Shown: positions 5,057 through 54,666 of the stretch, piece by piece
Layout of the letters: the number at the start of each line of letters is the position of its first letter
Position numbering within the stretch: the first letter of the stretch is position 1
Origin: Clostridiales bacterium
GTDB taxonomy: Bacteria; Bacillota; Clostridia; Christensenellales; JAISNN01
Assembly (NCBI GenBank): GCA_031276195.1
Contig: JAISNN010000077.1
Span: 5,165 to 69,164 of the forward strand
Direction: 5' to 3'
Length of the DNA: 64,000 nucleotides
Notes under the pieces: model-generated
What the model was told of the DNA's origin: nothing
Seen by the model: the letters and a program-made list of their open reading frames with translations, nothing else
Databases searched by the model: none
Position numbers and translations under genes: made by a program

Positions 5057-5917
5057 ATGAAAAAATATTACGCGCCCTTAAAACCGTATTACGTCATCCC
5101 CAGACCTCACCTCTTTTTTAAGACGGCGTTCGCAATCGGCGGACTCTTTATGACGCCGAAAGTCATTCTCTCCGAAGAACTCCCCGACGAACCCGTCATC
5201 TTTATGTCGAATCACGCTTTCGATTACGGACCGCGCGCAATGCTTTTCGTCCAAAAGGTCATAAAAAGGAAATTCAGAATGTGGTCGAACGCGAACGCGG
5301 TAACCGCGAAAACCGCCCCCGACCAAATGATGAAAACCACCTTTCCGAACGTCAAAAAACCTCTGCGCTATCTCGCGCGCCTATTCACATACATCGCGGG
5401 ACCGGTCATCGGCTTGTCGTTTAAAGCGGCGGGCATTATTCCCGTATACCGCGATATGCGCGTAAAGACGACCTACACAAAGACTTTCGAGACCTTAAAG
5501 GCGGGCTACGACGTCGTGATATTCCCCGACTCCGTAATCCCCGACCCCGATAACCCCTACCTCGACAAGGTTCAAAAAGGCGCGTTCAAGACTTTCGATA
5601 TGTGCCGCCGCTTTTTGGACAAAGTGCCGAAACTCTACCCCGTCTACGCTTGCAAACCCCTAAAAACCGTCTGCATCGGAAAAGGCTTCACTTTCGATAC
5701 CTCGATCCCCGTCGCCGAAGCCGAAGAAAAACTCGAAAAAGCCTTGTCGGACGAAATTAAACGCCTCGCGCTCTCCTTGCCGCCGCATAAAATCATTCAC
5801 TCGAATTCCATACCGAAGGATTTGGCGTCCGTCAAAAAATACTTGACCTACAACGAAGAAAAAATTTACTCGAAACTCGACGAAATAAACGCCGCGAAAG
5901 CCGAAAGCCCGAAATGA
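5057..5917 (+). CDS. lysophospholipid/glycerol-3-phosphate acyltransferase family protein (PlsC-like)
   Basis: 286 aa; HX4D acyltransferase motif (SNHAFDYGP); FPDSV..P second motif; RBS AAGGGA 7 nt upstream. Confidence 0.6.
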   Translation: MKKYYAPLKPYYVIPRPHLFFKTAFAIGGLFMTPKVILSEELPDEPVIFMSNHAFDYGPRAMLFVQKVIKRKFRMWSNANAVTAKTAPDQMMKTTFPNVKKPLRYLARLFTYIAGPVIGLSFKAAGIIPVYRDMRVKTTYTKTFETLKAGYDVVIFPDSVIPDPDNPYLDKVQKGAFKTFDMCRRFLDKVPKLYPVYACKPLKTVCIGKGFTFDTSIPVAEAEEKLEKALSDEIKRLALSLPPHKIIHSNSIPKDLASVKKYLTYNEEKIYSKLDEINAAKAESPK

Positions 5918-5944
5918 TTATAAAATTATGGAATACGAGGGGGA

Positions 5945-6000
5945 AAAACTTTTCCGTAAACAAAGATTTTTCCCCTCGCCCCTTTTCAAAAACTTTTAGA
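5945..6000 (+). terminator. palindromic terminator-like element (GGGGGAAAAACTTTTCC...GGAAAAATCTTTGTTT-family) after the acyltransferase gene
   Basis: long inverted repeat GAGGGGGAAAAACTTTTCCGTAAACAAAGATTTTTCCCCTCGCCCC followed by TTTTCAAAAACTTTTAG; member of a recurrent family (2704, 39539, 41660, 59886, 63649). Confidence 0.5.
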
Positions 6001-6318
6001 ATGCGTTCGCATAAGCGAAAACGAGAGAATTTTAGACGGTTTTTGTTCTTTTTAAGGCGTTTTTGACGCGGCATAGGAGCGGTTTTAAATCAAACGTACT
6101 TTTGATTTAAAAGTTTAACCGCTATATTAAGCGATTAAATAAATAAGTAAACCTTGCGAAAATAATCTACGCAAGGTTTTTTAATTACTCAAAACTTCCG
6201 TATGCAATTTTGCCCGTCCGCTAATTGCAATCCGTAATCAAAAAGCGCGAATACGGCAAACGAAACCGCCGCGGTCAGGGATAGCGTATAAGCGTATATC
6301 TGCCGCATATTATGCCGC

Positions 6319-6990
6319 TTATACCGCGCTTACCCGTTTAGAAAGCGCGAATACGGCAAGCGAAACCGCCGCGGTCAGTAATGCGATACAATAGAATACG
6401 GCGGAGAGCCCGAAACTTTCGGCAAGCAATTTCAGCAAAAAATAGGCGCAGACGGCGGCGGCAATCCCCAAGCCGAAAAGACCCGCAACGGGTCTTAAAT
6501 CTTTTGACAAAACCGTGTATCGTTTCAGATGATAGACGGCTATGCCGCCCGAAAGTCCGACAAGAACCGCCTTGACGACGAAATTTAAAAGCCCGGCAAA
6601 ATTTTGAACCGTTCTTTGCGACGTCGCGTCGAACATAATCGACTTTTGAAGGACTTCCGCAAAAAATTGAACGATCGGATTATAGAGAACGGCGCGCATA
6701 TTAAACGCGGTGATCGAAGCGTAAAGCGCGAAAACCGCCCCCGAAACAAAAAGCCACGCCGCGCCGCGCGCCGCCTTGAAACGGCGAACGAAAAAAAGCG
6801 CGGCGAAAGGCAAAAAAATCGGGATATAAATATAGAATTCACCGATTCCTTGCGTCATCTCACGCGGCGCGGATACCTCGCCGAGAAAGGCGCCGCCGAA
6901 AAAAAACAAAGCGGTCAAACCCGCCGACGCGGCGCATATTCCGAGCGCGGCGGGCAAAAAAGCCGCGTTTTTTAATTTTTTTCTTTCCAT
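6319..6990 (-). CDS. hypothetical polytopic membrane protein
   Basis: 223 aa, about 6 hydrophobic helices, no recognisable catalytic motif. Confidence 0.5.
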   Translation of the reverse strand: MERKKLKNAAFLPAALGICAASAGLTALFFFGGAFLGEVSAPREMTQGIGEFYIYIPIFLPFAALFFVRRFKAARGAAWLFVSGAVFALYASITAFNMRAVLYNPIVQFFAEVLQKSIMFDATSQRTVQNFAGLLNFVVKAVLVGLSGGIAVYHLKRYTVLSKDLRPVAGLFGLGIAAAVCAYFLLKLLAESFGLSAVFYCIALLTAAVSLAVFALSKRVSAV

Positions 6991-16367: not shown

Positions 16368-17555
16368 ATGAAAAATTTCAAAATCTCAATCAAAAAAACA
16401 GCCGCCCTCGCCGCCGCCCTGTCTCTCCTCATCGCCGCGCTCGTTTCGTGCCAGCACTCGTCGCCGAAAAGCCTCGCGCGCGCCTACGTTACGGATTATA
16501 AGGCGATGAACGCGGCGGGAATTACGGGACTGTACCGCCACGAAAACGACGGCGAAAGAGAAGAATTTAAAGAAGCCCTCGAAAAAACCTTCGGGGACGC
16601 GTCCGAAAGCGAAAAAACAAGCGTCAAATCCGCGAAGTTTAAGGGTTACGAAAAGACGGACGGGAACAAAAATTCGGAAACGGGCGTCGTTAAGATCGCG
16701 GTCAAAACGGGCGGAAACGGCGGAAAAAACGAGCGGAACGTCCCTATGAATTTCGTGAAAATCAAAAATAAATGGTATATCAAAAAGACGCAAAATCAAG
16801 AAACCCAAATATCCGTAACCGCGGCTAAGCCATACGAAACGGATATTGCAACAAACAAAAAAACAAGCGGCGCAAAAAATTTTAGTGCGTACGCAAAAGC
16901 AAACGGCGTAAAGAATTTTATTATGAACGCAAAAACAAGCGGCGCAAAAAATGTCATTATGAACGCAAAAACAAACGGCGCAAAGAATGTCATTATGAAC
17001 GCAAAAACAAGCGGCGCGGCGGATTTTAATATAAACACCTCAATGAACGCCGAAGTAAACGGTACGCCGAACGCCGGAAAAAATGTGAAAGATTTTTTTG
17101 AAAATTTCGGCGAACGGATAAAGAATGCGGCGGAAAAAATGCGATCCGAACTCGGCGGTTTTTTGAACGACGCGGCGGATAAAGCGAAGGTCCTTATCGA
17201 CGGCGTAATCGCTTCCGCGAAAAAGATAAACTCCGGATTCGCCGCCTTCGCGAAAAAAACGGCGGATAAGGTGAAAAACTTTGCGGACGGAATTATTAAT
17301 TCCCTTCAAAAAACGAATTCAAAATTCGCGGGTTTTGCCAAAAACGCGGCGGACAAAGCCCGAACCGTTATAGACGGAATTATTAATTCCACAAAAAAAT
17401 TCAACGCGGAATTCGGGAAATTTGCCAAAAACGCGGCGGATAAAGCCCGAACCGTTATAGACGGAATTATTAATTCCTCAAAAAAATTCAACGCGGAATT
17501 CGGAAAATTTACCAAAACGCGGCGGATAAAATCAAGACCGTACCCGACGGCATAA
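16368..17555 (+). CDS. repeat-containing lipoprotein (signal peptide with LVSC lipobox), probably 3'-frameshifted
   Basis: MKNFKISIKKTAALAAALSLLIAALVSC; internal tandem repeats NAKTSGAKNVIM x3 and AADKARTVIDGIINSxKKFNAEFGKFAKN x3. The last repeat shifts frame at an A4 run (17507-17510) where earlier copies have A5; the +1 frame continues the repeat (..DKIKTVPDGIIAAHRRRNVI*). Confidence 0.6.
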   Translation: MKNFKISIKKTAALAAALSLLIAALVSCQHSSPKSLARAYVTDYKAMNAAGITGLYRHENDGEREEFKEALEKTFGDASESEKTSVKSAKFKGYEKTDGNKNSETGVVKIAVKTGGNGGKNERNVPMNFVKIKNKWYIKKTQNQETQISVTAAKPYETDIATNKKTSGAKNFSAYAKANGVKNFIMNAKTSGAKNVIMNAKTNGAKNVIMNAKTSGAADFNINTSMNAEVNGTPNAGKNVKDFFENFGERIKNAAEKMRSELGGFLNDAADKAKVLIDGVIASAKKINSGFAAFAKKTADKVKNFADGIINSLQKTNSKFAGFAKNAADKARTVIDGIINSTKKFNAEFGKFAKNAADKARTVIDGIINSSKKFNAEFGKFTKTRRIKSRPYPTA

Positions 17556-19175: not shown

Positions 19176-19618
19176 CTAACAATGCCAAACGCATCTCGCC
19201 GGGTTCGGCTCGTTTTCCACCGCGACCGCCCGTAACGCTGCGGTATAGTCCGCGCAAACCTCCTCGGCAATTCTATCATACTCCGCTTCGTCCGCGCCGA
19301 ATCCCAATTTAAATACTTACGCGCCTAACAATGCCAAACACATCTCGCCGGGTTCGGCTCGTTTTCCGCCGCGACCGCCCGCAACGCGGCGGTATAGTCC
19401 GCGCAAACTTCCTCGGCGATTTTATCATACTCCGCTTCGTCCGCGCCGAATTCCAATTTAAATACTTACGCGCCTAACAATGCCAAACACATCTCGCCGG
19501 GTTCGGCTCGTTTTCCGCCGCAACCGCCCGCAACGCGGCGGTATAGTCCGCGCAAACCTCCTCGGCAATTCTATCATACTCCGCTTCGTCCGCGCCGAAT
19601 CCCAAGCGGTCATAAGCG
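19176..19618. repeat. three tandem copies (about 149 bp) of the 3'-terminal coding segment plus stop of the 19474..20004 gene
   Basis: copies at 19176-19324, 19325-19473 and 19474-19618 (the last is the real gene end); each begins CTAACAATGCCAAAC (stop codon on minus strand). Confidence 0.85.
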
Positions 19619-20004
19619 ATTGCCGCCGCCGCGTAAAAATACAACCCAAGCGAATGCGGCGCGGCGTGTATACTTCCCGCCGCCTGTCCGACGGCTCTCG
19701 CGGCGGCTTGCGCGATCGGATTGTTCTCTTGCTCGCGCGCGGCGGCGTGGCACTCGTTCAAAATGATATTTTTCACATACGGCAGTTTAACCTTTCCGTC
19801 CAGCCATTCGCGCGCGGCGGCTATCGCGCGGACGGGACGCGAATCATTCGGGCAATACCTCTCAAACAACGGAATCATCCGCCGCTCGGCATAATTCAAC
19901 GTCCAATTCGCAACCGTGATTTTGCTCTGCGTTTCGATCAGCCGCATCAGCGCGGCGACGGACGGCGACCCGACCTTGCCGAGAGTTTTTCTCAATTTTT
20001 TCAT
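19474..20004 (-). CDS. hypothetical alpha-helical protein (possible immunity-like protein)
   Basis: 176 aa; Ala-rich helical, no catalytic motif; RBS AAGGAG; embedded in a duplication array. Confidence 0.5.
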   Translation of the reverse strand: MKKLRKTLGKVGSPSVAALMRLIETQSKITVANWTLNYAERRMIPLFERYCPNDSRPVRAIAAAREWLDGKVKLPYVKNIILNECHAAAREQENNPIAQAAARAVGQAAGSIHAAPHSLGLYFYAAAAIAYDRLGFGADEAEYDRIAEEVCADYTAALRAVAAENEPNPARCVWHC

Positions 20005-20500
20005 TTCGCATTCTCCTTAGCGCAAAAAGCCGCGATCTCCGCAATGAGTTCTATCGGCAAGGGCTTATTATTCGGGAATTGCACCGCGCCCTTGCTTGTT
20101 TTGTATTCCGTCAATTTATCGGCAAAAAAGGCGACCGCCTTCCAAAAAAGTCTTTCTCAATTTTTTCATTCCGCATTCTCCTTAGACGCAAAAAAACGTG
20201 ATCTACGCGATAAATCAGAACGAATTACCGCCCATTTCACCGAATATCTTTCTCAATTTTTTCATTTCGCATTCTCCTTAGCGCAAAAAACCGTGATCTA
20301 CGCGATAAATCATAACAAACGACAACCGCCTTCCCAAAAAGTCTTTCTCAATTTTTTCACTTCGCATTCCCCTTAGCGCAAAAAGCCGCAATCTCCGCGA
20401 TGAGTTCTATCGGCAAGGGCTTATTATTCGGGAATTGCACCGCGCCCTTGCTTGTTTTGTATTCCGTCAATTTATCGGCAAAAAAGGCGACCGCCTCCAA
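19983..20500. repeat. array of four duplicated gene-junction units (3' end of a DUF1801-like gene + stop + RBS + start of the next gene)
   Basis: the unit TTTCTCAATTTTTTCAYTTCGCATTCYCCTTAGCGCAAAAA recurs at 19983, 20172, 20252, 20346; a 130-bp segment at 20024-20152 duplicates 20388-20516. Confidence 0.8.
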
Positions 20501-20716
20501 GCCGGGATACAATCCGATATGGGTTTTTTGCGCCGCGAAGTGAATAATATTCCGTCCTTTCCAAAAAGTCGGCATTCCCCATGAAATTTTTTCCGCCGCG
20601 CCGTCGGGCATTTCCGCCTTAATGCGCGCGTAAATTTCGAGAAGCCGCGCCCGAACGCCTTCCTCCCGCGTCTCGATATAACCGCCGATAGAGCCGGCAT
20701 TTTTTAACGAGTCCAT
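20357..20716 (-). CDS. DUF1801/YdhG-like small protein
   Basis: 119 aa; RBS AAGGAGG; weak resemblance to the DUF1801 fold family; the 3' end is duplicated upstream of the next gene. Confidence 0.45.
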   Translation of the reverse strand: MDSLKNAGSIGGYIETREEGVRARLLEIYARIKAEMPDGAAEKISWGMPTFWKGRNIIHFAAQKTHIGLYPGLEAVAFFADKLTEYKTSKGAVQFPNNKPLPIELIAEIAAFCAKGNAK

Positions 20717-21028: not shown

Positions 21029-22543
21029 TCACAGTTTCCCGATATCAAGAACTTTTTTTACCGCGTCCGCGATTTTTCCGTCGTTTTCGATTTCATAATC
21101 GGCGAAGTTTTCATACAAACTTTTGCGCGCGGAAAAAAGTTCCGCGGCGGAAAATTTTGCCGACAGCGGTCTGCCCGCCGACGCCAAAAGGTTCAGTCCG
21201 CGTTTAACATATATTATAACCGCGTTCTGTTTGAGCGCGTAATAATTCTCACGGTTCAAGACGACGCCGCCGCCCGTCGAAATGACGCTTCCGCTTGTTT
21301 TGCCCGCCTCGCGGACGGCGAAAGCCTCTCTTTCGCGGAAATATTTCTCGCCTTTTTTTTCAAAAATATACGGTATGGACGCGCCCTCGCGCCCCGCGAT
21401 TTCCTCGTCCGTATCGATAAATTTTCTGCCCGAAAGGGCGGCCGCCGTTCTGCCGATCGAAGACTTTCCGGAGCCGGGCATACCTATCAAAACTATGTTT
21501 CTTTTTTCGATTGTTATATCACGTGTTATGCTCTCTATAACGCGGTTTTCGATACTTTTTCCCGTGAAAAGTTCGGCGGCGAATTTCGCCTGCGCGACCA
21601 GCATTTGCAGCCCCGAACAACACCTTATTCCCCTCTCCTCCGCAGAAAAAATCAGCCTCGTTTTCAAAGGATTGTATATGACGTCCGCAACCGCCTCCAA
21701 GTTCTTAAAGCGCGCCAAATCGACTAAGCATTCCCCGTTGTCCGGGTACATTCCGACGGGCGACGCGTTGATCAAGACCGCGGCGTTCGCCGAAAAATTC
21801 ATATAGTTTTCATAGTTTACCGCGCCGCGCCGCGAAACGACAGTGATACTTCCGACTCCGAGAGAATTCAAAACCGCCTTGACCGTCGCGGTCGTACCGC
21901 CGTCGCCGAGGATAAAAACATCCTTGCCGCGGACGTCGATTCCGTTCGCCTCCAAAAGGTATTTGAAACCAAAAAAATCCGTATTATAGCCGACGGTTAC
22001 GGTTTCGTTCTCCGCTCCTTTATTTTTTAGAATTTCGTTTTCGTATCCGCTCTTTATTCCGCGTGCCGCGGTTACGGTTTCATTTTCCTGTTTTTTTTGT
22101 ATCTCGTTTTCCGCTCCTTCATTCTTTATTCCGTATGGCGCGGTTTCGTTTTCATTTTCCTGTTTTTTTTGTATCTCGCTTTCCGCGTATCCGCTCTTTA
22201 TTCCGTGTGCAGAGGTTTTGCTTTCCGCTTCTTTGCCTTCATCTTTTTGTGTTTCATTCTCTCCTTGTCCGCTTTCAAATTCGGCGGCGCGCCTCTTGAC
22301 GACGGTATTGACCGCGCCCGAAAGCGACGCGCTCGCGTCTATCCGGTCGAGAAATTTCACGACGGTTTTTTTATATGGAATCGTAACGTTGAACGCGTCT
22401 ATACCGCTCCTTATAAAGTCCTCTATCCCGTCCTCTTTAATCTCGATAAGCCGATACGAATACGCGCCGTCGGACAACCGCCGGTGTATTTCGGCGGAAT
22501 AACTGTGTTTCAGGCTCGCGCCGATAAGACCGCATTTTAACAT
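21029..22543 (-). CDS. aroE/aroK: bifunctional shikimate 5-dehydrogenase / shikimate kinase (AroE-AroK fusion) with low-complexity insertion
   Basis: N-terminal AroE substrate domain (GLIG.SL.HS.S..IH, N.T.PYK, GAVNT), Rossmann GDGG.T, C-terminal kinase with GMPGSGKS Walker A, DTD, STGGG; about 95-aa repeat insert at about 21990-22275. Confidence 0.85.
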   Translation of the reverse strand: MLKCGLIGASLKHSYSAEIHRRLSDGAYSYRLIEIKEDGIEDFIRSGIDAFNVTIPYKKTVVKFLDRIDASASLSGAVNTVVKRRAAEFESGQGENETQKDEGKEAESKTSAHGIKSGYAESEIQKKQENENETAPYGIKNEGAENEIQKKQENETVTAARGIKSGYENEILKNKGAENETVTVGYNTDFFGFKYLLEANGIDVRGKDVFILGDGGTTATVKAVLNSLGVGSITVVSRRGAVNYENYMNFSANAAVLINASPVGMYPDNGECLVDLARFKNLEAVADVIYNPLKTRLIFSAEERGIRCCSGLQMLVAQAKFAAELFTGKSIENRVIESITRDITIEKRNIVLIGMPGSGKSSIGRTAAALSGRKFIDTDEEIAGREGASIPYIFEKKGEKYFREREAFAVREAGKTSGSVISTGGGVVLNRENYYALKQNAVIIYVKRGLNLLASAGRPLSAKFSAAELFSARKSLYENFADYEIENDGKIADAVKKVLDIGKL

Positions 22544-22589: not shown

Positions 22590-22960
22590 TTAATGCCCTC
22601 ATATTCGTTCTATATATGTTTTTCCGTCTGTTATATAACTGTTTTTTTTAGTTTTCCGCGATACCGTACCGCGTTTTTTAAGGGATTTTCCGCCGTATTT
22701 ACGTATGTTTTTCATATCGTTTTACGGAGGATTTTCAGCCTTATTTCACGCGGTACTATGCCGCGTTTTTTAAGAGATTTTCCGCCGTATTTACGTATGT
22801 TTTTCATATCGTTTTACGGAGGTTTTCAGCCTTATTTTCCGCGATACCGTACCGCGTTTTTTAAGAGAATTTCCGCCGTATTTACGTATGTTTTTCATAT
22901 CGTTTTACGGAGGTTTTCAGCCTTATTTTCCGCGGTACTATGCCGCGTTTTTTTAATGGA
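22590..22960. repeat. about 95-bp tandem repeat x3.3
   Basis: unit TTCCGCGATACCGTACCGCGTTTTTTAAGGGATTTTCCGCCGTATTTACGTATGTTTTTCATATCGTTTTACGGAGG.TTTCAGCCTTATT. Confidence 0.8.
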
Positions 22961-24351: not shown

Positions 24352-25671
24352 CTACAACAAAAAATCTACCAAAGCGCACGCCGCCGCCGCCTCTATGACG
24401 GGAACGGCTCGCGGAACGATACAAGAATCGTGCCTGCCCGGGATTACAATTTTCGTATTTTTTCCGCTCGCGGCGTCGATCGTATCCTGCTCTTTCGCGA
24501 TCGACGGAACGGGTTTTATCGCGGTTCTGAACAAGATCGGCATACCGTTGGAAATCCCGCCCGTGATTCCGCCGTTGTTATTCGTCTTGGTTTTGACATC
24601 GGCTTTCGCGCCCGTTTGCGCGCCGCGCTTCTCCGGATTTAACCCGTTTTCGCGGCAAACGCCGGATTTTTCCGAATTTGACGCCGGATTAAAATAAGCC
24701 GTATTCTTTTCCGGATTCGATACGCTATTGCCGCAAGCCGCGTCTCTTTCCGGATTCGATACGCTATTGCCGCAAGCCGTGCCTCTTTCCGGATTCGATA
24801 CGCTATTACCGCAAGCCGTATTCTTTTCCGGATTTTTTTCCTCATAATAAATCGCGTCGTTCGCCGCGCTTCCGCGCATTTCCGAAAGTTTAAAGCCCCC
24901 TCCGAATTCAATCCCTTTAACCGCGGGAATCGCAAAAATCAACTTCGCGATACTCCCCTCTATGCCGTCATAGACGGGTTCGCCGATGCCGGCGGGCAGC
25001 CCCGTTACGACGCATTCGACCACGCCGCCCACCGAATCGCCATCGCGCGCCGCCGCGGTGATCTCTTCTATTATAGCCGTTTCGTATGAAAAGTCAAGCA
25101 AAGGATAAACCGCCGATTTCATTTCCGCGATTTTTTCACGGTTAAGTCCCTCTATCCCGCCGCCGTCAAGGTAAGAAACAGCCCGAACACGCCCGACGGA
25201 CGCCAAATATGCGGCGATTTCAACTCCGCGCGCCCTCAAAACCGAAAGCGCGACACTCCCCGCCGCGCACAAAGCCGCGGTCAAACGCCCCGAAAACTGT
25301 CCGCCGCCGCGATAGTCGTTATATCCGCCGTATTTTACATAGGCGGCATAGTCGGAATGCGACGGTCTGAACGCGCTTTTCAATATTTCATAGTCCGAAG
25401 AGCGCGCGTCGGCGTTTTCTATGATTATGCAAAGGGGCGCGCCCGTCGCCCTCCCGTCGAGCAGCCCCGACAAGACGACGGGGCGGTCGGTTTCACGCCT
25501 CGCCGTCGAATGAGCCGCGCTTGACGGACGCCTGCGCGCCAAAAAAGCGGCGATTTCGTCTAAGTCGATAGGCGTACCCGCGGGGATTCCGTTTATGACG
25601 ACGCCCATCGCCTTTGAATGAGACTCCCCGAAAATGTCGATTATAAAATTTTTTCCGCATATGAACGCCAT
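24352..25671 (-). CDS. aroC: chorismate synthase with tandem-repeat insertion
   Basis: 439 aa; GESHG-like N-terminus (FGESHSKAMGVVI.G.PAG), conserved C-terminal core; about 95-aa insert (24580-24865) containing 3 x 16-aa repeats ACGNSVSNPE(R/K).. Confidence 0.9.
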   Translation of the reverse strand: MAFICGKNFIIDIFGESHSKAMGVVINGIPAGTPIDLDEIAAFLARRRPSSAAHSTARRETDRPVVLSGLLDGRATGAPLCIIIENADARSSDYEILKSAFRPSHSDYAAYVKYGGYNDYRGGGQFSGRLTAALCAAGSVALSVLRARGVEIAAYLASVGRVRAVSYLDGGGIEGLNREKIAEMKSAVYPLLDFSYETAIIEEITAAARDGDSVGGVVECVVTGLPAGIGEPVYDGIEGSIAKLIFAIPAVKGIEFGGGFKLSEMRGSAANDAIYYEEKNPEKNTACGNSVSNPERGTACGNSVSNPERDAACGNSVSNPEKNTAYFNPASNSEKSGVCRENGLNPEKRGAQTGAKADVKTKTNNNGGITGGISNGMPILFRTAIKPVPSIAKEQDTIDAASGKNTKIVIPGRHDSCIVPRAVPVIEAAAACALVDFLL

Positions 25672-25898: not shown

Positions 25899-27803
25899 TT
25901 ACGCTTTCAGCCCTTCCAAATCCTCGAAAAAATCCGGATAAGATTTATTCACCGCTTCCGCCCCGACAATCTCCGCGGAAGAGCGGCAAATCAATCCCGC
26001 GACGGCGGCAGACATAACCATTCTATGGTCGTTATACCCGTCCAAAACGACGGTTTTTCCCTTCGCGTCTTTCCCGAATCCGCCTCCGCCGCCGTCGATT
26101 GTCAGGGTATCCCCGTCCGCAACCGCCGCGACGCCCAAACGGACGAGCATTTCCGCGGTCGCTTCGAGCCTGTCGCATTCTTTCAACCTCAATCTGCCGG
26201 CGTTGTATATGACGGTTCGTCCCGAAGCCGCGCCCGCCGCGACGGAAATTATAGGGATTATATCGGGTATATTTTTCGCGTCGATTTCAACGCCTTTCAA
26301 AGAAGATTTTTTGACCTCTATACCGCATTTTTCCGCGCCCGTTTCATTCGTTTCGCCGCATTTATTTTCACATATTTTACCGCGCTCTATACCGCGGTTC
26401 TTATCCGTTTCTCCGAATTCCGCGCCACAGTTTTTTTCCGTTTCGCCGCATTTATTTTCACACATTTTACCGCGCTCTATACCGCGGTTTTTATCCGTTT
26501 CTCCGAATTCCGCGCCGCCGTTTTTTTCTCTTTCGTAATACTCTTTTTCCCCCGTTTCGTTATGCTCTATACCGCGGTTTTTGACCGTTATATCGCCGCC
26601 CATACGCCTTATTATATCGACAATTTCTCTGTCGGGCTGCTTTGAATTAAGGTCTAATCCCTTCAAAAATATATCACCGTTCAAAACTCCCGCGACGATA
26701 AAAAACGCCGCGTTCGACCAATCTTTTTCAATCTCGACATACCCGGGAGAACGATATTTTCCGATATATTTATTACCCCCTAAACCGACCGCCGCCGCTT
26801 CAAAAGACGGACGGCTTTCACTATTTCCGGTATGTTTTTCATTTTCGCCCTCAATCGGCGCACACTCAGATTGCGGATATTTTTTTCCGTTTATAATGTA
26901 TTTCCCGTTTTCGCAACAGACCGCCGCCGCGCCGAATTTTTCCAAAACACCGAGTGTTATGTCGATATATCCCGCCGATTCGGGAGCGTTTCCGCACGAG
27001 ATAACGCTTTCGCCCTCTAAAAGAGGCAACGCCATAAGCAGTCCCGAGATAAATTGCGAACTGACCTTTCCGCCAAGCGTAAAAATTCCGCTTTTCAGCC
27101 GCCCGGACGTCCTCAAAATCCGTCCGTCTTTCAAGACTTTTACGCCGTTTTTTTTCATCGCGTCCGTCAATTCGTCCGTCGGGCGTTCGGGCAGTCTGCC
27201 GCTCATATGAAACTCCGCGTCGAACCCCAGCGCGGCGGCAAAAGGAAGCAAAAAACGCAGCGTCGAGCCGCTTTCGCCGCAGTCCAAGATCTTTATTTCG
27301 CCGCTTTTTTCCGCATTTAAATTTTCGGTGCTTGCGTTTCCGTCCGCTTTAAAATTCTTTATTTCGCCGCTTTTTTCCGCATTTAAATTTCTTATTTCCA
27401 CGCTCTTTTCCGCGTCCGCACCGCCCTTAATCCTCAAATCGGAAAGCGGAAATCCCTCTTGCTTGACCAAAAAATCCGCTTTTAAATTCCTTATTTCACC
27501 GCCGTTCCCGGCGTTTTTATTTTCGGTATCTTTATTTCCGTCCGCGTTTTGTCCCCGTTTTAAAATAGGCGTAATCTCGCAAGCCCCGTCCGGCATATCT
27601 CTAAATTCCGCGCCCAAAGCCGTCAAACACCGCCTCGTCGCCGCCGTATCCGCGGAATCGTTCAGCCCGAAAACGACGGTTTTTTTGTCCGCCGCGGCCG
27701 CGCAAATCATAACTCTGTGCGCGGCGGACTTCGACGTAATCACTTCGACCGAACCTTTTAAAAACGCGCCTTTTATAATTTTATTCATTCCGCTCCCATC
27801 CAT
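25899..27803 (-). CDS. aroA: 3-phosphoshikimate 1-carboxyvinyltransferase (EPSP synthase) with two repeat insertions
   Basis: 634 aa versus about 430 typical; conserved EPSPS blocks at the N-terminus, middle and C-terminus (..DHRM.M..A.A.L); inserts at about 27265-27560 and 26290-26620 (GETDKNRGIERGK.CENKCGET x2). An alternative start ATG at 27788 (MNKIIKG) has the better RBS (GGGAG). Confidence 0.85.
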   Translation of the reverse strand: MDGSGMNKIIKGAFLKGSVEVITSKSAAHRVMICAAAADKKTVVFGLNDSADTAATRRCLTALGAEFRDMPDGACEITPILKRGQNADGNKDTENKNAGNGGEIRNLKADFLVKQEGFPLSDLRIKGGADAEKSVEIRNLNAEKSGEIKNFKADGNASTENLNAEKSGEIKILDCGESGSTLRFLLPFAAALGFDAEFHMSGRLPERPTDELTDAMKKNGVKVLKDGRILRTSGRLKSGIFTLGGKVSSQFISGLLMALPLLEGESVISCGNAPESAGYIDITLGVLEKFGAAAVCCENGKYIINGKKYPQSECAPIEGENEKHTGNSESRPSFEAAAVGLGGNKYIGKYRSPGYVEIEKDWSNAAFFIVAGVLNGDIFLKGLDLNSKQPDREIVDIIRRMGGDITVKNRGIEHNETGEKEYYEREKNGGAEFGETDKNRGIERGKMCENKCGETEKNCGAEFGETDKNRGIERGKICENKCGETNETGAEKCGIEVKKSSLKGVEIDAKNIPDIIPIISVAAGAASGRTVIYNAGRLRLKECDRLEATAEMLVRLGVAAVADGDTLTIDGGGGGFGKDAKGKTVVLDGYNDHRMVMSAAVAGLICRSSAEIVGAEAVNKSYPDFFEDLEGLKA

Positions 27804-28143: not shown

Positions 28144-29448
28144 TCAACCGCCGATCCTCAAAAAATTCCTTATCTCTTTTGCCGGAATTTCCTCGACGGC
28201 GCACCGCCCTATACCGCGAATCACGACCGCCCCCAGCATCGCGCCGCTCATTTTTTTGTCGGAAAGTATGACCTCCGACATTTCGTCTATCCCGTACGGA
28301 CAGGGTATATCAAGACGGTTTTTTGAGAGCAGTTTCAAAATTCTTTCGTATTCGCCGCCGCTCAAAAAGCCCTTTTCACGCGACAAAGCCGCGATATATA
28401 AAAGCCCTATCGACACGCATTTCCCGTGGCGGATTTGATAGCCCGATAACTTTTCGACGGCGTGTCCGATCGTATGCCCGAGGTTGAGAAGCCGCCTGAC
28501 GTTTTGTTCTTTCTCGTCCGCTTCGACGATTTCCGCTTTTACGGCGACGGAAAGCGCGATAATTTTCTCCCAATTATAGCCGCCGTAAGCGTTTTTTCCG
28601 GTTTCATTTTTCTTTTCCGAACCGCCGCCATGCCCCGTACTATCGTTATTTTCTTCAAAACCGTCGTAATTTTCGGTATTCCCGTTATTGTTTTTCAATC
28701 CGCCGCTATGCCGCGCGCTATCCTTGTTTTCTTCGAAACCGTCGTAATTTTCGGTATTCCCGTTATTGTTTTTCAATACGCCGCTATGCCGCGCGCTATC
28801 GTTATTTTCTTCAAAACCGTCGTAATTACGGTTGTTTTCATTGTTTTTTTCCAATTCGTCCAACAGTTCACCGCCCTTTAAAATCGCGTGCTTCACAATC
28901 TCGCCCATTCCGTCGGCGATCAAATCCTCCGACAGCGTTTTCAAAAATCCGATATCGCAAAGCACCGCCCGCGGTTGATGAAACGCCCCCGCGAGATTTT
29001 TTCCGGTCGAAAGGTTTATGCCCGTCTTGCCTCCGACGGACGAATCGACGGCGGCGAGCAGCGTCGTGGGTATCTGAACGAGGTTTATTCCGCGCAAATA
29101 CGTCGCCGCGGCAAAGCCCGCGAGATCGCCCGTTACGCCCCCCCCGAGCGCGGCGGCGGCGTCGCTCCGCGTCAATTTCGCCTCCGCCAAAAACTCCAAA
29201 ATTTTAAAATATTCGGCGGAATTCTTTGAATTTTCTCCGCCCGTAAAGGTATGGGAAAAGACCTCGAAGCCCGCCGATTCGAGCGATTTTACGACGCGCG
29301 CGCCGTAAAGCCCGAATACCGTGCGGTCGGATATAAGGGCGATTTTACGGACTTTTTTTAAGCGTTCTTTGAGCGCGCCGCCGAAGTCTATGCCTTCGCC
29401 GATCACAACGTCGTAGCCTCCGCCGGCATTTACGCGAATTTGCGTCAT
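28144..29448 (-). CDS. aroB: 3-dehydroquinate synthase with repeat insertion
   Basis: 434 aa versus about 360; NAD-binding GGGV.GD.AGF.A, metal-binding H..GH..E motifs; insert 28565-28865 (NYDGFEENNDSARHSG.LKNNNGNTE x3). Confidence 0.85.
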   Translation of the reverse strand: MTQIRVNAGGGYDVVIGEGIDFGGALKERLKKVRKIALISDRTVFGLYGARVVKSLESAGFEVFSHTFTGGENSKNSAEYFKILEFLAEAKLTRSDAAAALGGGVTGDLAGFAAATYLRGINLVQIPTTLLAAVDSSVGGKTGINLSTGKNLAGAFHQPRAVLCDIGFLKTLSEDLIADGMGEIVKHAILKGGELLDELEKNNENNRNYDGFEENNDSARHSGVLKNNNGNTENYDGFEENKDSARHSGGLKNNNGNTENYDGFEENNDSTGHGGGSEKKNETGKNAYGGYNWEKIIALSVAVKAEIVEADEKEQNVRRLLNLGHTIGHAVEKLSGYQIRHGKCVSIGLLYIAALSREKGFLSGGEYERILKLLSKNRLDIPCPYGIDEMSEVILSDKKMSGAMLGAVVIRGIGRCAVEEIPAKEIRNFLRIGG

Positions 29449-29459
29449 ACTTTCCTCTC

Positions 29460-29640
29460 TTTTTTATAACTTTTTTTTAGCGGTACTATACCGCGTTTTT
29501 TGTGATATTTTTAAATGCTTTCAAATGAGTTTTTCTTTACGTTTTCCGCCGCTTATTTATAACTTTTTTTCCGCGCTTCTATACCGCGTTTTTTGTGATA
29601 TTTTTAAATGCTTTCAAATGGATTTTTTCGTTCTTTAATA
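29460..29640. repeat. about 100-bp direct repeat x2
   Basis: ATAACTTTTTTT..GCGCTTCTATACCGCGTTTTTTGTGATATTTTTAAATGCTTTCAAATG twice. Confidence 0.7.
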
Positions 29641-37884: not shown

Positions 37885-38238
37885 TTATTTCTTTATTTCC
37901 ACTATGCAATACTTTTTCTGGTTATAAGGATAACCGCCCGCAAACGTAAGTCGTCCTTTTTCTTTTGCATTCTTAGTTAATTGCACTTGAAACTTTTTAC
38001 CGTTTGCGGAAAAAGATGATTTATTATCCTTTTCCCTGTTTGTTGCAATATTTGCAATTTGTATGTTTTCGTACGTATCCTTGCCGCCGTTTGATAACGG
38101 CTGTATATGATCGATATTCCAGCCGTACGGCGAATTCTCGTTTCCGTACTCGCTTTTGTGAATTTCGCGTCCCGCGAAATCATACGCTATCTGCTTATTT
38201 CCAAAGTCCTTTTCCCACAAATATATTTCATTCGACAT
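37885..38238 (-). CDS. small HNH-family endonuclease
   Basis: 117 aa; NIDHIQPLSNGGKDTYENIQIANIATN = HNH/His-Me finger core (DH...P...GG....N); RBS GGAGGA; low-GC gene. Confidence 0.7.
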   Translation of the reverse strand: MSNEIYLWEKDFGNKQIAYDFAGREIHKSEYGNENSPYGWNIDHIQPLSNGGKDTYENIQIANIATNREKDNKSSFSANGKKFQVQLTKNAKEKGRLTFAGGYPYNQKKYCIVEIKK

Positions 38239-38405
38239 AAATATGTCCTCCGTTAGTTTTTTTCGGCAATGCCGTCAATCTTTTATTTTTTTATTTCCGC
38301 TATGCAATACTTTTTACTTGAATAGTCATATCCGCCCTTCCGCCCGCCGCCGTCTTTAACTACGGCGGTTTTTAGTACGGATTAAAGTTTAGCGAATATC
38401 TTTTG

Positions 38406-38963
38406 TTATTCTTTTGCTTTCGCAAAGAATGTCGCTCTGCTGTCGTTTACCGTTTGCTTTTTTATTTCTTCCAGATCCGTTATTTTTTGGTATCTAATTC
38501 TCAGTTGTCCGGCGTATTCTTGTTCGGCTTGCGCGTATTTTTCTTGATATTCTTTTTTATATGTATCGTATTTATAGTATGCTATTATTTTATACGCTAT
38601 TAGACTTAACGATATTATTACCGGGTACACCGTTATATTTGAACTCATGGCCGATGTTATGACTATCGCGGAAATCATTATAATTATTAAGACGTTTATT
38701 AGTTTTGTTTTGGGTTTTTCTTTCATTTCTTCAAATTGAAATAATATCGTTGTGTTTTTCAGTTTATTTATTTGTTCTTGTGTGTTTTCATATTGTATTT
38801 GATATTTTAGCAAATCACCGTAAACCGGGTTTTGCGTTTCTCTTGATAAGGCTATCCCTTTTTCAGTTACGGACAGCAACTCCCATCCGAAACTTTCATA
38901 ATCATATATGATTTGTTGCTTATCTTCTTTCTGACATTCTATCAATTTCGATTCTCTTGACAT
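38406..38963 (-). CDS. hypothetical membrane protein (2 TM helices, coiled-coil tail), co-oriented immediately upstream of the HNH gene
   Basis: 185 aa; cytoplasmic N-domain, TM helices LINVLIIIMISAIVITSAM and VYPVIISLSLIAYKIIAYY, charged C-terminal coiled coil; very AT-rich. Confidence 0.6.
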   Translation of the reverse strand: MSRESKLIECQKEDKQQIIYDYESFGWELLSVTEKGIALSRETQNPVYGDLLKYQIQYENTQEQINKLKNTTILFQFEEMKEKPKTKLINVLIIIMISAIVITSAMSSNITVYPVIISLSLIAYKIIAYYKYDTYKKEYQEKYAQAEQEYAGQLRIRYQKITDLEEIKKQTVNDSRATFFAKAKE

Positions 38964-39193
38964 ATATTATATGTACTCCTTTTTGCTTTTTTTCGGCAAT
39001 CCCCCACAATACTTTATTTTTTTAGTACCATTACCGTATTATGTATTCATATTAACATAACTTTCAATATGATGTCAACTATTTTACATACCATACCTTG
39101 AAATAATTATAATTATATCATTTTACCAATTTTCATAACTGTATAGCGGAAGCCTTTTTGCTCTATAATTTTAGTGTCGATAAGGGAGGCGTT

Positions 39194-39502
39194 ATGGAAC
39201 TTGACGAATTGATTCACAGAATAGGCGTATTGCGCGCCCGCGCAAACCTTTCCGCGCGCGCTTTGAGCCTGAAAATCAATATGAACGAATGCTATATCAA
39301 CCGCTTGGAAAACAATAAAACAAAGTTCGAGCCGTCTCTCGGCACGCTTTTTTCGATCATCGAGGCTTGCGATTCGACGCCCGAAGAATTCTTTTATCAC
39401 AATATAAACGAATTTAAAATCGACAAACAAACCATAGACCTCTTGAAAAAACTCTCTCACGAACAAAAAGAAGCCCTTATGACACTGTTAAAAAATAAAT
39501 GA
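39194..39502 (+). CDS. XRE-family helix-turn-helix transcriptional regulator
   Basis: start moved to ATG 39194 (MELDELIHRIGVLRARANLSARALSLKINMNECYINRLEN) with AGGGAGG RBS; classic HTH_3 pattern; divergent from the membrane-protein/HNH pair. Confidence 0.75.
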   Translation: MELDELIHRIGVLRARANLSARALSLKINMNECYINRLENNKTKFEPSLGTLFSIIEACDSTPEEFFYHNINEFKIDKQTIDLLKKLSHEQKEALMTLLKNK

Positions 39503-43633: not shown

Positions 43634-43710
43634 AAAGCGGTTTCCTCCTTTTTTTAGAATTCATTATTTTTTGTTTTTAAAGCGTTTTTTTGAATTTATT
43701 TCTTTCGTTT

Positions 43711-46700: not shown

Positions 46701-46734
46701 AATATTTTTTCGGATATTTTAATATTTTCAGCAT
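43711..46734 (-). CDS. ABC transporter ATP-binding/permease protein, heterodimer partner, with about 300-aa N-terminal extracytoplasmic domain, NBD insertions and C-terminal 11-aa tandem repeats
   Basis: 1007 aa; TM1, large loop, 5 more TM; NBD with GVTGSGKTT, MSGGQKQRLAIARAV, LYVFDDSFSALD; C-terminus (LKNETDEFKK[TR]) x6 encoded by 33-bp DNA tandem repeats at 43711-43930. Confidence 0.8.
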   Translation of the reverse strand: MLKILKYPKKYLKIIILAVCLIGIQAYCDLELPKYMSNMINVGIRQYGIDDALPDVFSQKTFGEIKLFMTDKEYDEFKNYYIGINYAYTNPLRVIDKKEFEAYKKKYTKLNEGEEVYLLKRNVEYFKNDFTEEEIDALREKLKIPAIVYAAFNEMLAISSVGFLSDNSFLSVLFAYFNGLNPKDNPDGFNEYKENQKGWTLSEYFDELKAMSERQNPDGEGVIYGNSERGLFMQIVSGAVNGKFSPKAGEIKKEDVVKALVDEFGIDENEASSFADTVLSAFSRIAPEITDYILELGNIDYKKFEYGRAGVDTRLLQINYIVQNGIFMLLYTVGSIAAAAVIIALSARVAANVARDLRRDVFSKVQTFSNAEFDKFSTASLITRTSNDVSQLQSLFFLMIKNTFYAIFVVGGGLYYLHKTLGINERLLLLIAAMIAVISVGVAAVYALVLPKFLAGQKLLDKLNLVTRERLSGVLVIRANDNEPREEGRYEDVNQKITNVNLFINRTMALLNPFMMLFLNALGVVIIYLTVDRNYLIDGSILPGSLLAFLQYTVQIIYAFMLIAGMFVFLPRAVVAMKRIWEILAAKPEVADPENPVDIYTGEPVNAGTELNTELKTNGGKSLNFETELNKDKDKSSNTELETNGGKSAAKEKRFDIRFQNVAFKYAGSGEYALKDVSFEAKSGKTTAIVGVTGSGKTTIVNLILRFYDPTEGAVFVNGIDIRRVRQEDLRKNIGFVSQQPRLFSGTVRENLAAGKEDADIADMDRAVLIAKAEDFIGAKEPKTAERSEIIQNEKEKGRNNVEIIPNGEKTVPNENGTDKYGAFVSRAGKNMSGGQKQRLAIARAVVRRPRLYVFDDSFSALDYLTEANLRAALSRETKENNAGVIVVTQRIASVLNADKIVMVDGGKIIGQGTHKELMRDCPPYGELARSQLPEEELLPLKNETDEFKKTLKNETDEFKKRLKNETDEFKKRLKNETSEFKKTLKNETDEFKKTLKKRNGRIQKNA

Positions 46735-49106: not shown

Positions 49107-49134
49107 AAAAAACGCGGTTGGTTTGCCGCGGAAA

Positions 49135-49430
49135 TACTTGCGGAATAATACGCTAAAAACACGGCTCTATACCGCGGAATTACGCGCAGAATAATATACT
49201 AAAAAACGCGGCTCTATACCGCGGAATGACGAACGGAATAATATACTAAAAACGCGGCTCTATACCGCGGAAATACTTGCGGAATAATATACTAAAAAAC
49301 GCGGCTCTATACCGCGGAATTGCGAACGGAATAATATACTAAAAAACGCGGCTCTATACCGCTGAATTACGCGCAGAATAATATACTAAAAAACGCGGCT
49401 CTATACCGCGGAATTACGCGCAAAAAACAC
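49135..49430. repeat. about 58-bp tandem repeat x5 between potA and potB
   Basis: unit ACGCGGCTCTATACCGCGGAATTACGCGCAGAATAATATACTAAAAA. Confidence 0.85.
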
Positions 49431-53045: not shown

Positions 53046-53183
53046 AAAGCGGACAAAAAACCGCCCGCGTTCGATGATGACAACGACGATGAATTTATTC
53101 CTCCCGTCAAATAAAAAGCGGACAAAAAACCGCCCGCATTCGACGATGACGACGACGATGAATTTATTCCTCCCGTCAAATAA
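52978..53183. repeat. 69-bp tandem repeat x3 (potD tail codons + stop)
   Basis: AAAAGCGGACAAAAAACCGCCCGCRTTCGAYGATGAC(GAC/AAC)GACGA(T)GAATTTATTCCTCCCGTCAAATAA three times; only copy 1 is inside the ORF. Confidence 0.85.
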
Positions 53184-53220
53184 AAAACGTATAGTTTAAA
53201 AAAATAAAAAATAAAAACAG

Positions 53221-53755: not shown

Positions 53756-53799
53756 ATTTAAAATCGGTTTTTCGCGTAATTAAACGCGTAAAATCCGAC

Positions 53800-54000
53800 G
53801 TCATAGAGGCGCGGAATATCAATAGTAACTTTTTTTTAAGAGGGCTTCGCGGCTTTCGCATATTCTTTCCCGTCCGCTTTACGGGAAGTTATGACCGTTA
53901 AGAAAAGTGAAAGGGATTTTCCGCCGAAACAAAACGGAATTTTATCGCGGTTTTCCGTTTTGTTGGCCGCGCGGGGCTAATACCTCTCCGGCTGTCGCTT
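53800..54000 (+). promoter_or_regulatory. candidate lysine riboswitch (L-box)
   Basis: ordered conserved L-box blocks: AGAGGCGC (53808), AGTAAC (about 53826), GAAAGGG (53893), CCGAAAC (53907), TGGCCG (53957), GCTGTCGC (53990) over about 190 nt, followed by a U-rich stretch; downstream neighbourhood includes asd-dapA-dapB. Confidence 0.5.
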
Positions 54001-54600: not shown

Positions 54601-54666
54601 TTATAACGGAAAGAATAAAAAACTATATTTCCGTCATCCCCCAAAAAATCGGGAGGTAAAACAAAA

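Follow-up and report, generated by a model that had tools for sequence, protein, structure and literature searches.

The gene-end fragments that surround a small two-gene operon in this DNA of a termite-gut Clostridiales bacterium are probably decaying local tandem duplications, which would have arisen by slipped-strand or unequal recombination and been reshaped afterwards by internal deletion, drift and selection. The fragments are most readily understood as by-products, probably without a function of their own. The array around these genes, here called A and B, is itself ordinary; the more unusual feature is the repeat load of the window, by which we mean the whole stretch of 64 kb that was analysed.

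The coding sequences of the A/B region lie entirely on the minus strand, with two intact genes:

20357-20716, minus strand: gene A, an intact DUF1801 protein of 119 aa (open reading frame call and Pfam PF08818)
19474-20004, minus strand: gene B, an intact Imm5-like putative immunity protein of 176 aa (Pfam PF21805)

Gene A, correctly recognized as DUF1801-like in the earlier note, matches PF08818 with 48.3 bits (gathering cut-off 27.2, E 1.4e-12), and gene B, described there as a helical protein, matches PF21805 (Imm5_like) with 134 bits (cut-off 25, E 3.7e-39) across profile positions 2-127 of 129. PADLOC and NCBIfam gave no match for gene A, gene B or the ASCH gene. The closest of the 1728 homologs of B shares 81% identity with it. 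Gene B has the highest GC content in the window (0.584) and a GC3 value (0.684) inside the window's range, and comparison of GC and GC3 with the window provided no compositional evidence for a recent transfer of A-B. Nor did synteny yield an island boundary; the window and the repeat-poor relatives L025 and L026 all diverge from one another immediately past AroEK. Most of the main open reading frames in the window have housekeeping Pfam matches, including the shikimate, lysine and serine pathways, ABC transporters, LacZ and Ack/Pta, while about eight are without a match and one encodes a small HNH protein. The only Rfam match over the window is a lysine riboswitch at 53796-54008.

Downstream of its own stop codon, B is followed by two further copies of its last 132 bp, each after a 17-bp linker, which TRF describes as a 149-bp unit repeated 2.9 times at 19176-19605 (95% matches, score 797):

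19474-19605, minus strand: X1, the last 132 bp of gene B, inside B
19457-19473, minus strand: first linker Y, 17 bp
19325-19456, minus strand: X2, a copy of the B 3' end with 5 differences from X1, 3 of them synonymous
19308-19324, minus strand: second linker Y, 17 bp
19176-19307, minus strand: X3, a copy of the B 3' end with 5 differences from X1, 4 of them synonymous

The earlier note had spoken of the last 149 bp of the gene being repeated twice; the two extra copies are there, but only 132 bp of each unit (43 codons plus TAG) come from B, and the remaining 17 bp are the linker, GCGCGTAAGTATTTAAA, which occurs nowhere else in the window and for which no source was found. Both joints between Y and X are identical. 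X2 and X3 are about 96% identical to the resident gene, with one or two residue changes per copy, and X3 reads AVENEP with the V of the family consensus, a residue that is A in gene B. All four X2-specific changes fall in the 5' 48 nt and all four X3-specific changes in the 3' 49 nt, a separation seen in 2 of the 70 possible orderings.

On the other side of B, three junction-spanning units of 95, 96 and 165 bp separate it from A, each composed of an A-type 3' remnant, a ribosome-binding site (RBS) and the codons MKKLRK. The 36-nt junction itself, GCGCTAAGGRGAATGCGRARTGAAAAAATTGAGAAA, comprises the stop of A, the RBS, the start of B and MKKLRK. It occurs four times at no more than 3 mismatches when none is expected (100 shuffles), in agreement with the four copies previously counted, and its start codons lie at 20360 (GTG), 20265, 20169 and 20004, with spacings of 95, 96 and 165 bp. 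TRF reports the junction region as a 95-bp unit repeated 2.8 times with 82% matches. The elements are:

20344-20379, minus strand: junction J1, at the end of intact A, with the RBS weakened to AAGGGG and the start GTG
20249-20343, minus strand: unit U1, 95 bp, with head GACTTTTTGGGAAGGCGG, a decayed A 3' remnant and junction J2
20153-20248, minus strand: unit U2, 96 bp, a sister copy of U1 (82% identical), with junction J3
19988-20152, minus strand: unit U3, 165 bp, with the common unit head, a copy of the A C-terminus and junction J4

The start codon that had been described as mutated is indeed changed from ATG to GTG, at the junction that closes intact A; the TGA stop of A overlaps it (GTGA), and the GTG opens a 16-codon open reading frame, MKKLRKTFWEGGCRLL*. 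The A remnant of U1 reads FIA*ITVFCAKENAK*, and a tblastn search matched residues 105-119 of A to 20309-20265 in this unit with 67% identity. Junction J2 has AAGGAG and an ATG at 20265, and J3 in U2 has an ATG at 20169 that starts a short open reading frame, MKKLRKIFGEMGGNSF*. U3 carries a 46-codon copy of the C-terminus of A (aa 74-119, tblastn match at 20141-20004) that is 96% identical to the original, and the 157 nt at 19984-20140, which copy the 3' end of A and its junction, are 97% identical to 20340-20496. J4 provides the working RBS and ATG of gene B and has retained AAGGAG, in contrast to the AAGGGG and GTG of J1. The repeated gene-end and junction fragments in differing states of decay, as first noticed in the earlier note, are confirmed by TRF, junction counts and alignments.

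Head and junction are common to U1, U2 and U3, and in alignment U1 equals U3 less an internal deletion of 70 bp. Together with the identical joints between Y and X, these features indicate a single founding event per array followed by amplification, rather than repeated independent deletions. The copies all point the same way, head to tail, and show nested periods, internal deletions and a gradient of divergence (units 82-97% identical), as expected from slippage or unequal exchange, and they form part of a wider excess of arrays in the one window of the genome that was seen.

We hypothesize that two independent arrays arose around an ordinary A-B operon by the same process as the other repeats of the window. 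In the first, a segment running from inside A through the A stop, the RBS and the B start to the first codons of B would have been duplicated head to tail. The founder would have been about 165 bp long, a length that matches the distance between a GGTCGCC heptamer in A and another in B. After amplification, one copy may have lost 70 bp internally, and the 95-bp derivative would then have been duplicated again. In the second array, the last 132 bp of B would have been duplicated with a 17-bp filler at the joint, and the resulting 149-bp unit amplified once more by unequal exchange. Selection would have kept only the copy completing the frame of A and the copy supplying the AAGGAG and ATG of B, while the interior units presumably drifted to about 80% identity and gained stops, and the junction after A would have lost its strong RBS and ATG.

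Some of the data fit this scenario less easily. Differences between the intact genes and their copies comprise 9 synonymous and 4 non-synonymous changes, when the expected synonymous share is 34%, and this excess is more selection-filtered than the drift of dead copies predicts. The separated blocks of changes in X2 and X3 hint at conversion tracts. Furthermore, U3 is 97% identical to the 3' end of A when U1 and U2 are at about 80%, which requires gene conversion or another order of events, and the X-Y-X-Y-X array lacks 17 bp of three complete units, which calls for either an inserted filler or one more deletion. The unit head is of ambiguous origin: its matches to A nt 146-165 and to a B-type 5' end have comparable scores.

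The earlier note had proposed a tandem array of two-gene cassettes repeatedly deleted by recombination, and we consider it rather unlikely that full-length, diverging A-B cassettes, in a small homogeneous array of the polyimmunity type, collapsed by deletion and left these stumps. B is Imm5-like, A and B are paired in 6 of 94 loci, one of which (L015) has a second Imm5-like gene adjoining B, and the differences between copies and genes are enriched in synonymous changes. The junction copies, with 0-3 mismatches in 36 nt, are far better kept than the adjoining remnants at about 20% divergence, as expected of recombination sites between paralogs, and the unit heads read KTF.., resembling the family consensus KTFGDV rather than the KTLGKV of resident B. 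However, the single head and junction in all units and the identical joints between Y and X argue against independent deletions. The model would require at least 5-6 cassettes, and deletion would have to have taken the bodies of B on one side of the surviving copy and A together with the 5' parts of B on the other. Moreover, X2 and X3 are too similar to resident B to be diverged paralogs, and the same architecture is found at a gene for a solute-binding protein, which is no immunity gene. No second full-length paralog of A or B is present within the 64-kb window. Likewise, Pfam scans of the main open reading frames in the 64 kb identified no toxin gene, toxin C-terminal cassette, reverse transcriptase or recombinase, including the XerC/D type. 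The earlier note had named a lack of paralogs combined with simple local multiplication as evidence against its own proposal, and as far as 64 kb allow this is what we find. The suggested likeness to polymorphic immunity arrays is borne out in part, by the family of B; a toxin link is not supported within the 64 kb.

We also considered the possibility that the partial copies serve as silent donors or phase switches that vary the immunity protein, or how it is expressed, through recombination with B or the A/B junction, much like the silent cassettes named in the earlier note. The mosaic pattern of changes among X1-X3, the near-identity of U3 to the 3' end of A, which suggests conversion, and the alternative RBS and start strengths on the junction copies are compatible with such a system, which nevertheless seems very improbable. 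Each donor departs from the resident gene at no more than one or two residues, and together they could alter at most three (G/E, R/K, A/V); being direct repeats, they would mostly be deleted by exchange. Furthermore, the N-terminus of B has no obvious signal peptide on visual inspection, no recombinase or reverse transcriptase is present in the window, the repeat units have no special secondary structure (folding z-scores of +0.3 to +1.1 against shuffled sequences), and 44 other such arrays lie in non-variable contexts. A related idea is that the stumps are working homology partners that convert the live genes. As a small reservoir close by, they would serve to repair or diversify an immunity-type operon acquired by horizontal transfer, and their alternative RBS and start copies would tune the translation of B. 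The hyperactive short-homology recombination that this implies would account for the mosaic blocks, the synonymous excess and the 97% identity of the apparently old U3; we regard it as quite improbable.

Homologous loci elsewhere contain single genes, with no end-fragment arrays at about 30 loci with B homologs and about 70 with A homologs. A genome scan with B gave 24 loci in which the DNA similarity is confined to the open reading frame, and no conserved flanks marking a mobile unit were found across them. A metagenome scan with protein A gave 68 loci at no more than 70% identity (full-length matches at no more than 65%), of which only L077 and L083 also contain B, in both gene orders, and none has a fragment array. 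The metagenome scan for the 36-nt junction pattern produced 0 matches.

Within the window, TRF reported 89 rows that merge into 46 arrays and cover 11.6% of the bases, as compared to 0.08 arrays per kb and 0.5% coverage in 94 control loci of 514 kb in total; the window figures describe 64 kb of one short-read MAG contig. An array is present in 27 of the 40 intergenic spacers, and the array period is divisible by 3 in 12 of 12 intragenic arrays versus 7 of 30 intergenic ones, showing that the arrays are real and filtered by selection. Three of them are useful for comparison:

52983-53186, plus strand: 69-bp unit repeated 3 times, at the solute-binding-protein gene 51441-53045
43669-43916: fourth 3'-end array
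22652-22953, minus strand: 91-bp unit repeated 3.3 times in the spacer between PDT and AroEK

The unit at 52983-53186 takes in the final 20 codons of the gene with their TAA stop, plus a short linker, an architecture like that of the array at the 3' end of B. With this parallel at an unrelated gene, 46 arrays in the window and housekeeping neighbors, a link of the process to the A/B gene family or to a toxin system is not supported. The PDT to AroEK spacer measures 28 bp in L026, 91 bp in L025, where it holds one copy of a hairpin motif, and 419 bp in the window, and AroEK grows from 421 aa in L026 to 438 aa in L025 and 504 aa in the window by an in-frame repeat. By this comparison, the expansion of both gene and spacer is lineage-specific. 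In-frame repeats are found inside AroE-AroK and EPSP synthase, and chorismate synthase and DHQ synthase also have an internal array.

An assembly artefact, by which strain variants or mis-threaded repeats in a short-read metagenome created false tandem copies, has in its favor that the window comes from a MAG contig of 75.8 kb obtained from a termite-gut metagenome and that no second assembly of the species is present in the collections searched. Exact-protein searches with A, B and the 100%-identical AroEK (P0121) likewise found no recorded contig that encodes them. We nevertheless judge an artefact very improbable. Exact stretches common to the copies are about 100 nt or less by hand comparison, and would be resolvable if the assembly used k=119, a value suggested by the k119_ contig names in sister MAGs. 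Also counting against an artefact are the tendency of De Bruijn assemblers to collapse tandem repeats instead of generating new copies, the reading frame kept in all of the intragenic arrays and the intermediate states of the same expansions in relatives.

Our findings illustrate that a showy "cassette array" beside an immunity-type gene can come from plain local tandem duplication, and they call for caution when repeated gene fragments are flagged by scans as toxin-immunity or antigenic-variation loci. The context is of greater interest than the locus, with repeats in two thirds of the window's spacers, copying gene ends. If this load holds genome-wide, the organism would offer a natural setting in which to follow the creation and loss of gene ends by tandem duplication, and to ask which repair defect or sequence feature drives the repeats.

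Several known systems resemble the locus in part. A polyimmunity locus is a tandem array of several intact, distinct immunity genes, at least four in extended loci, with an adjacent XerC/D recombinase in several cases and a content that varies between strains (Zhang et al., 2012; PMC3482391). The A/B locus shares with polyimmunity and orphan cassette arrays an Imm-family gene with repeated partial genes beside it in one orientation, and the B family, like polyimmunity families, moves between phyla, with 70-81% amino acid identity across MAGs of the Bacillota (Oscillospiraceae, Clostridium), Actinomycetota (Coriobacteriales, Bifidobacteriaceae), Bacteroidota (Prevotellaceae) and Chloroflexota (Anaerolineaceae). 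It is no polyimmunity locus, with one intact Imm5-like gene and otherwise only stumps of up to 43 codons that are about 96% identical, and no polymorphic toxin locus with orphan cassettes of the CDI, Rhs or LXG kind, the main open reading frames of the window having no toxin domain. An integron array can be rejected on the lack of an integrase in the window, a unit folding z-score of +0.5 and homology that breaks at TTGG instead of GTT. The sequence GTTAGGC at the stop of B resembles an integron core site. Likewise, a diversity-generating retroelement is rejected, with no reverse transcriptase domain in the window; between X1 and X2 or X3, adenine stands in the non-genic copy at 5 of 10 listed mismatches and the others are C/T changes.

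Like the silent copies of pilE/pilS, vlsE and tprK, the stumps are partial, promoterless gene segments beside an expressed copy, but they are nearly identical to the expressed gene and arranged as direct repeats, and that gene encodes a putative cytoplasmic protein of the immunity type; the near-identity of the donors argues against silent-cassette antigenic or phase variation. The lpl cluster of Staphylococcus aureus evolves in units of a 3' part of an open reading frame, a spacer and the next 5' part (Tsuru and Kobayashi, 2008; PMC2568036), and here, too, the repeated unit crosses a gene boundary, from the 3' end of A through the RBS to the 5' end of B. The members of lpl are full-length expressed paralogs exchanged at a conserved central region, whereas the units described here are short stumps with stops between two unrelated genes.

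The closest parallels are the many intergenic tandem repeats (VNTR) of Ehrlichia ruminantium, Wolbachia and other Rickettsiales, with units of tens to hundreds of bp in 2-8 copies, which have been ascribed to slipped-strand mispairing, sometimes hairpin-seeded (PMC3287509). Published TRF benchmarks are 0.38% for Escherichia coli and 6.3% for E. ruminantium (PMC3287509), so that the repeat density of our 64 kb exceeds the genome-wide value (summed TRF rows) of this classic repeat-rich bacterial genome. Unlike these obligate intracellular alphaproteobacteria, the organism described here is a Clostridiales bacterium of the termite gut, represented by a MAG, and its repeats are also found in frame within core enzymes. 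In repeat-rich genomes such as that of E. ruminantium, truncated gene fragments reportedly accompany the repeats, the copy number of which is said to vary actively.

Gene A, which encodes a DUF1801 protein, and gene B, which encodes an Imm5-like putative immunity protein, lie on the minus strand with all other genes of the region and are accompanied by partial copies of themselves, arranged as follows.

20716-20357, minus: gene A, 119 aa, DUF1801 (E 1.4e-12)
20343-20249, minus: U1, junction-spanning unit, 95 bp
20248-20153, minus: U2, junction-spanning unit, 96 bp
20152-19988, minus: U3, junction-spanning unit, 165 bp
20004-19474, minus: gene B, 176 aa, Imm5_like PF21805 (E 3.7e-39)
19473-19457, minus: first linker Y, 17 bp, GCGCGTAAGTATTTAAA
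19456-19325, minus: X2, copy of the last 132 bp of B
19324-19308, minus: second linker Y, same sequence as the first
19307-19176, minus: X3, copy of the last 132 bp of B

The repeated gene-end and junction fragments described in the earlier note were recovered by TRF and alignment, both as 3'-end copies of B and as four copies of the junction (last codons of A, AAGGAG, ATG and the MKKLRK codons), where none is expected by chance. The junction start codons, at 20360, 20265, 20169 and 20004, overlap the TGA stop of A (GTGA or ATGA). TRF reported a 149-bp period (2.9 copies, 95% matches) and a 95-bp period (2.8 copies, 82% matches), and positions 19984-20140 (157 nt) are 97% identical to 20340-20496. 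The 149-bp unit, previously taken to be the last 149 bp of B, is indeed repeated, but only 132 of its 149 bp are derived from B. Likewise, the start codon described as mutated has changed from ATG to GTG, and its AAGGAG has become the weaker AAGGGG, but it is part of the junction copy found at the end of intact gene A.

U3 contains a 46-codon copy of the C-terminus of A (aa 74-119, 96% identical), followed by the RBS and ATG used by B. U1 aligns with U3 from end to end, the sole gap being one 70-bp internal deletion, and U2 is a sister of U1 with 82% identity. The heads of U1 and U3 are nearly the same, GACTTTTT(T)GG(G)AAGGCGGT, U2 has a more diverged version, and all three units meet the MKKLRK codons at one and the same point. 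Given the common head and the shared joining point, the joint between the 5' part of B and the A-derived part must have formed once, before being copied. The 3' array also goes back to a single founder, since its two Y|X joints are identical. The origin of the unit head is ambiguous, as A nt 146-165 (18 of 19 nt match) and the family-typical 5' coding sequence for KTFGE give comparable scores; the former would require that a further 60 bp had been lost between TTGGAAAGG and TTGGAGG. A GGTCGCC heptamer in A and another in B lie 165 bp apart, exactly one period, a length that would result if a short direct repeat had paired unequally. Each unit opens an ORF of 16-17 codons (MKKLRKTFWEGGCRLL, MKKLRKIFGEMGGNSF and MKKLRKTFLEGGRLFCR, each followed by a stop), and there is no sign that these ORFs are conserved.

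We consider it probable that the two arrays formed locally and independently, with short homologies serving as sites of slipped-strand mispairing or unequal exchange. For the junction array, a segment of about 165 bp would have been duplicated and amplified, after which one copy would have lost 70 bp and the 95-bp derivative would have duplicated in turn. For the 3' array, X would have been duplicated, with 17 bp of filler inserted where the copies meet, and a single unequal exchange would then yield X-Y-X-Y-X. Selection would then have kept the true C-terminus of A and the true RBS and start of B; the interior copies, now about 80% identical and with an in-frame TAG, would have drifted, and the junction after A would have lost its consensus RBS and ATG.

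Four observations fit this scheme less well. The live genes differ from the copies by nine synonymous and four non-synonymous changes, for an expected synonymous share of 34%. The four X2-specific changes all fall within the 5' 48 nt and the four X3-specific changes within the 3' 49 nt (2 of 70 orderings). X3 has the family-consensus valine at a position where B and X2 have alanine, and U3 is 97% identical to A, far above its presumed derivatives U1 and U2. These misfits suggest either gene conversion among the copies or “snapshots” of the live gene, preserved in the copies as it evolved, and a MAG assembler that placed strain SNPs in different copies could produce the same mosaics. They also keep alive the proposal of the earlier note that an array of full A-B cassettes has since collapsed, which we regard as unlikely, and the idea that the copies serve as a functional reservoir, which seems to us very improbable. 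The toxin gene and paralogues invoked by that note were sought within the 64-kb window, and no toxin domain, recombinase, integrase, reverse transcriptase or additional A or B paralogue was found there. Its gene identities and junction-unit anatomy hold; its account of cause and function is not supported.

The slippage or unequal exchange that we favor would be the same process that filled other spacers of the window. TRF gave 89 rows, merged into 46 arrays that cover 11.6% of the bases, about 20 times the coverage in control loci (0.08 arrays per kb, 0.5% coverage; 514 kb from 94 other loci) and above the 6.3% published for Ehrlichia ruminantium (PMC3287509). An array is present in 27 of the 40 intergenic spacers, and coding density is only about 74%. 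The period is divisible by three in all 12 intragenic arrays, as compared with 7 of 30 intergenic ones, which shows that the arrays are genuine and that selection has filtered them. Four arrays span a gene 3' end, two of them at the A-B locus. Arrays elsewhere in the window include the following.

52983-53186, plus: solute-binding-protein gene 51441-53045, 69-bp unit x3 (last 20 codons, stop and short linker)
43669-43916: ABC-transporter gene 43711-46734, 33-bp period through C-terminus and stop
22042-22225: AroE-AroK, in-frame
26331-26589 and 27343-27413: EPSP synthase, in-frame
24696-24834: chorismate synthase, in-frame
28622-28827: DHQ synthase, in-frame

The first of these, at an unrelated gene whose C-terminus ends in ADKKPPAFDDDDDEFIPPVK, is identical in architecture to the 3' array of B. 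In the second, 33/67-bp units encode a KNETDEFKK(T/R)L repeat tail. Essential shikimate-pathway enzymes thus contain in-frame tandem repeats, with an effect on length directly shown for AroEK; EPSP synthase (634 aa), chorismate synthase (439 aa) and DHQ synthase (434 aa) each have an internal array and are presumably long for their families. An A-run with a CGCGG-N7-CCGCG hairpin motif (e.g., AAAAAACGCGGCTCTATACCGCGG) recurs within several arrays (49107-49421, 29459-29629, 22652-22953 and 26331-26589), one of these arrays lying inside the EPSP synthase ORF, and may seed slippage or represent a small dispersed element. A 395-aa repeat-rich protein (16368-17555, plus), encoded on the strand opposite to its neighbours, contains two arrays (72-bp and 87-bp units) that yield (K/N)AADKA...IDGIINS repeats; it had no convincing Pfam match, and its N-terminus looks lipoprotein-like. 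An array of 46-bp units (54254-54622) sits between a lysine riboswitch (RF00168, 53796-54008, plus, 62.8 bits), upstream of asd/dapA/dapB, and the next ORF.

The repeat expansion is specific to the lineage of the window, as judged from two relatives, L025 and L026, that both keep the PDT to AroEK synteny. Identity to the window proteins is 89% (PDT) and 72% (AroEK) in L025, with one array in 3.9 kb, and 74% and 60% in L026, with no array in 11.4 kb.

PDT to AroEK spacer and AroEK length
L026: 28 bp; 421 aa
L025: 91 bp, one A-run and CGCGG...CCGCG hairpin motif; 438 aa
Window: 419 bp, 91-bp unit x3.3 including A-run and hairpin motif; 504 aa

AroEK was lengthened by an in-frame repeat growing at one site. 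The repeat-poor L025 has a single A-run and hairpin motif in the homologous spacer (1605-1695). Neither L025 nor L026 has A or B after AroEK, but synteny breaks at that point in all three, and an island boundary therefore cannot be drawn.

Homologs of B gave 1728 matches, and those of 70-81% identity occur in MAGs of Oscillospiraceae, Clostridiales, Coriobacteriales, Bifidobacteriaceae, Prevotellaceae and Anaerolineaceae; the family has therefore been widely exchanged. Judging from their isolate codes, we take these MAGs to be termite-gut samples. DNA similarity among the loci ends at the ORF limits. A and B are adjacent at 6 of 94 unrelated loci, in either order (A then B in L008, L015 and L077; B then A in L004, L005 and L083), and the pairing may be functional, although we know of no description of DUF1801 as an immunity or toxin partner. 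In L015, a second, distant Imm5-like domain protein (5910-6614) directly follows B. No tandem copies of gene ends or of the junction were found among the homologous A/B loci examined. In an Oscillospiraceae MAG (L024, 5384-5740), a 118-aa ORF resembles B at its C-terminus (B aa 127-176, about 70% identity) and has an unrelated N-terminus. This ORF, which has an ABC transporter on one side and a two-component system on the other, looks like an Imm5-like gene remnant or fusion, different in kind from the window fragments.

The window belongs to a termite-gut MAG annotated as “Clostridiales bacterium”, and its AroE-AroK fusion is 100% identical to protein P0121, encoded on a 75.8-kb contig. Its content is otherwise mostly housekeeping (shikimate operon, RpiB, M28 peptidase, polysaccharide deacetylase, ASCH protein, LacZ, Ack/Pta, ABC transporters, lysine and serine biosynthesis). 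Main ORFs before ~47 kb are on the minus strand except four, and all thereafter are on the plus strand; at ~47000 the AT skew flips sign and the GC skew flattens. This switch could mark a replication origin or terminus, or just divergent operons; no dnaA was seen in the window. Three small low-GC ORFs at 37885-39466 (GC 0.32-0.41, mean 0.50), one an HNH endonuclease (PF01844), may be a small foreign insertion.

Several known systems were considered. A polyimmunity locus or orphan-cassette array (Zhang et al., 2012, PMC3482391) was rejected, as the window has one intact immunity-type gene and lacks distinct paralogues, a toxin and a recombinase. So was a diversity-generating retroelement, given the lack of a reverse transcriptase in the window and copy differences that are not adenine-specific, and an integron array, given the lack of IntI, unstructured units and a homology boundary off the GTT core. 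The Staphylococcus aureus lpl cluster (PMC2568036) shares a boundary-spanning unit, but its members are full-length genes. The feature worth follow-up is the presumably genome-wide repeat load, which reaches gene ends and core enzymes. The locus itself adds one more case to a class of events already known, resembling the gene fragments that accompany tandem repeats in repeat-rich genomes, best known from E. ruminantium, in which Collins and colleagues reportedly linked repeats to truncated gene fragments in 2005.
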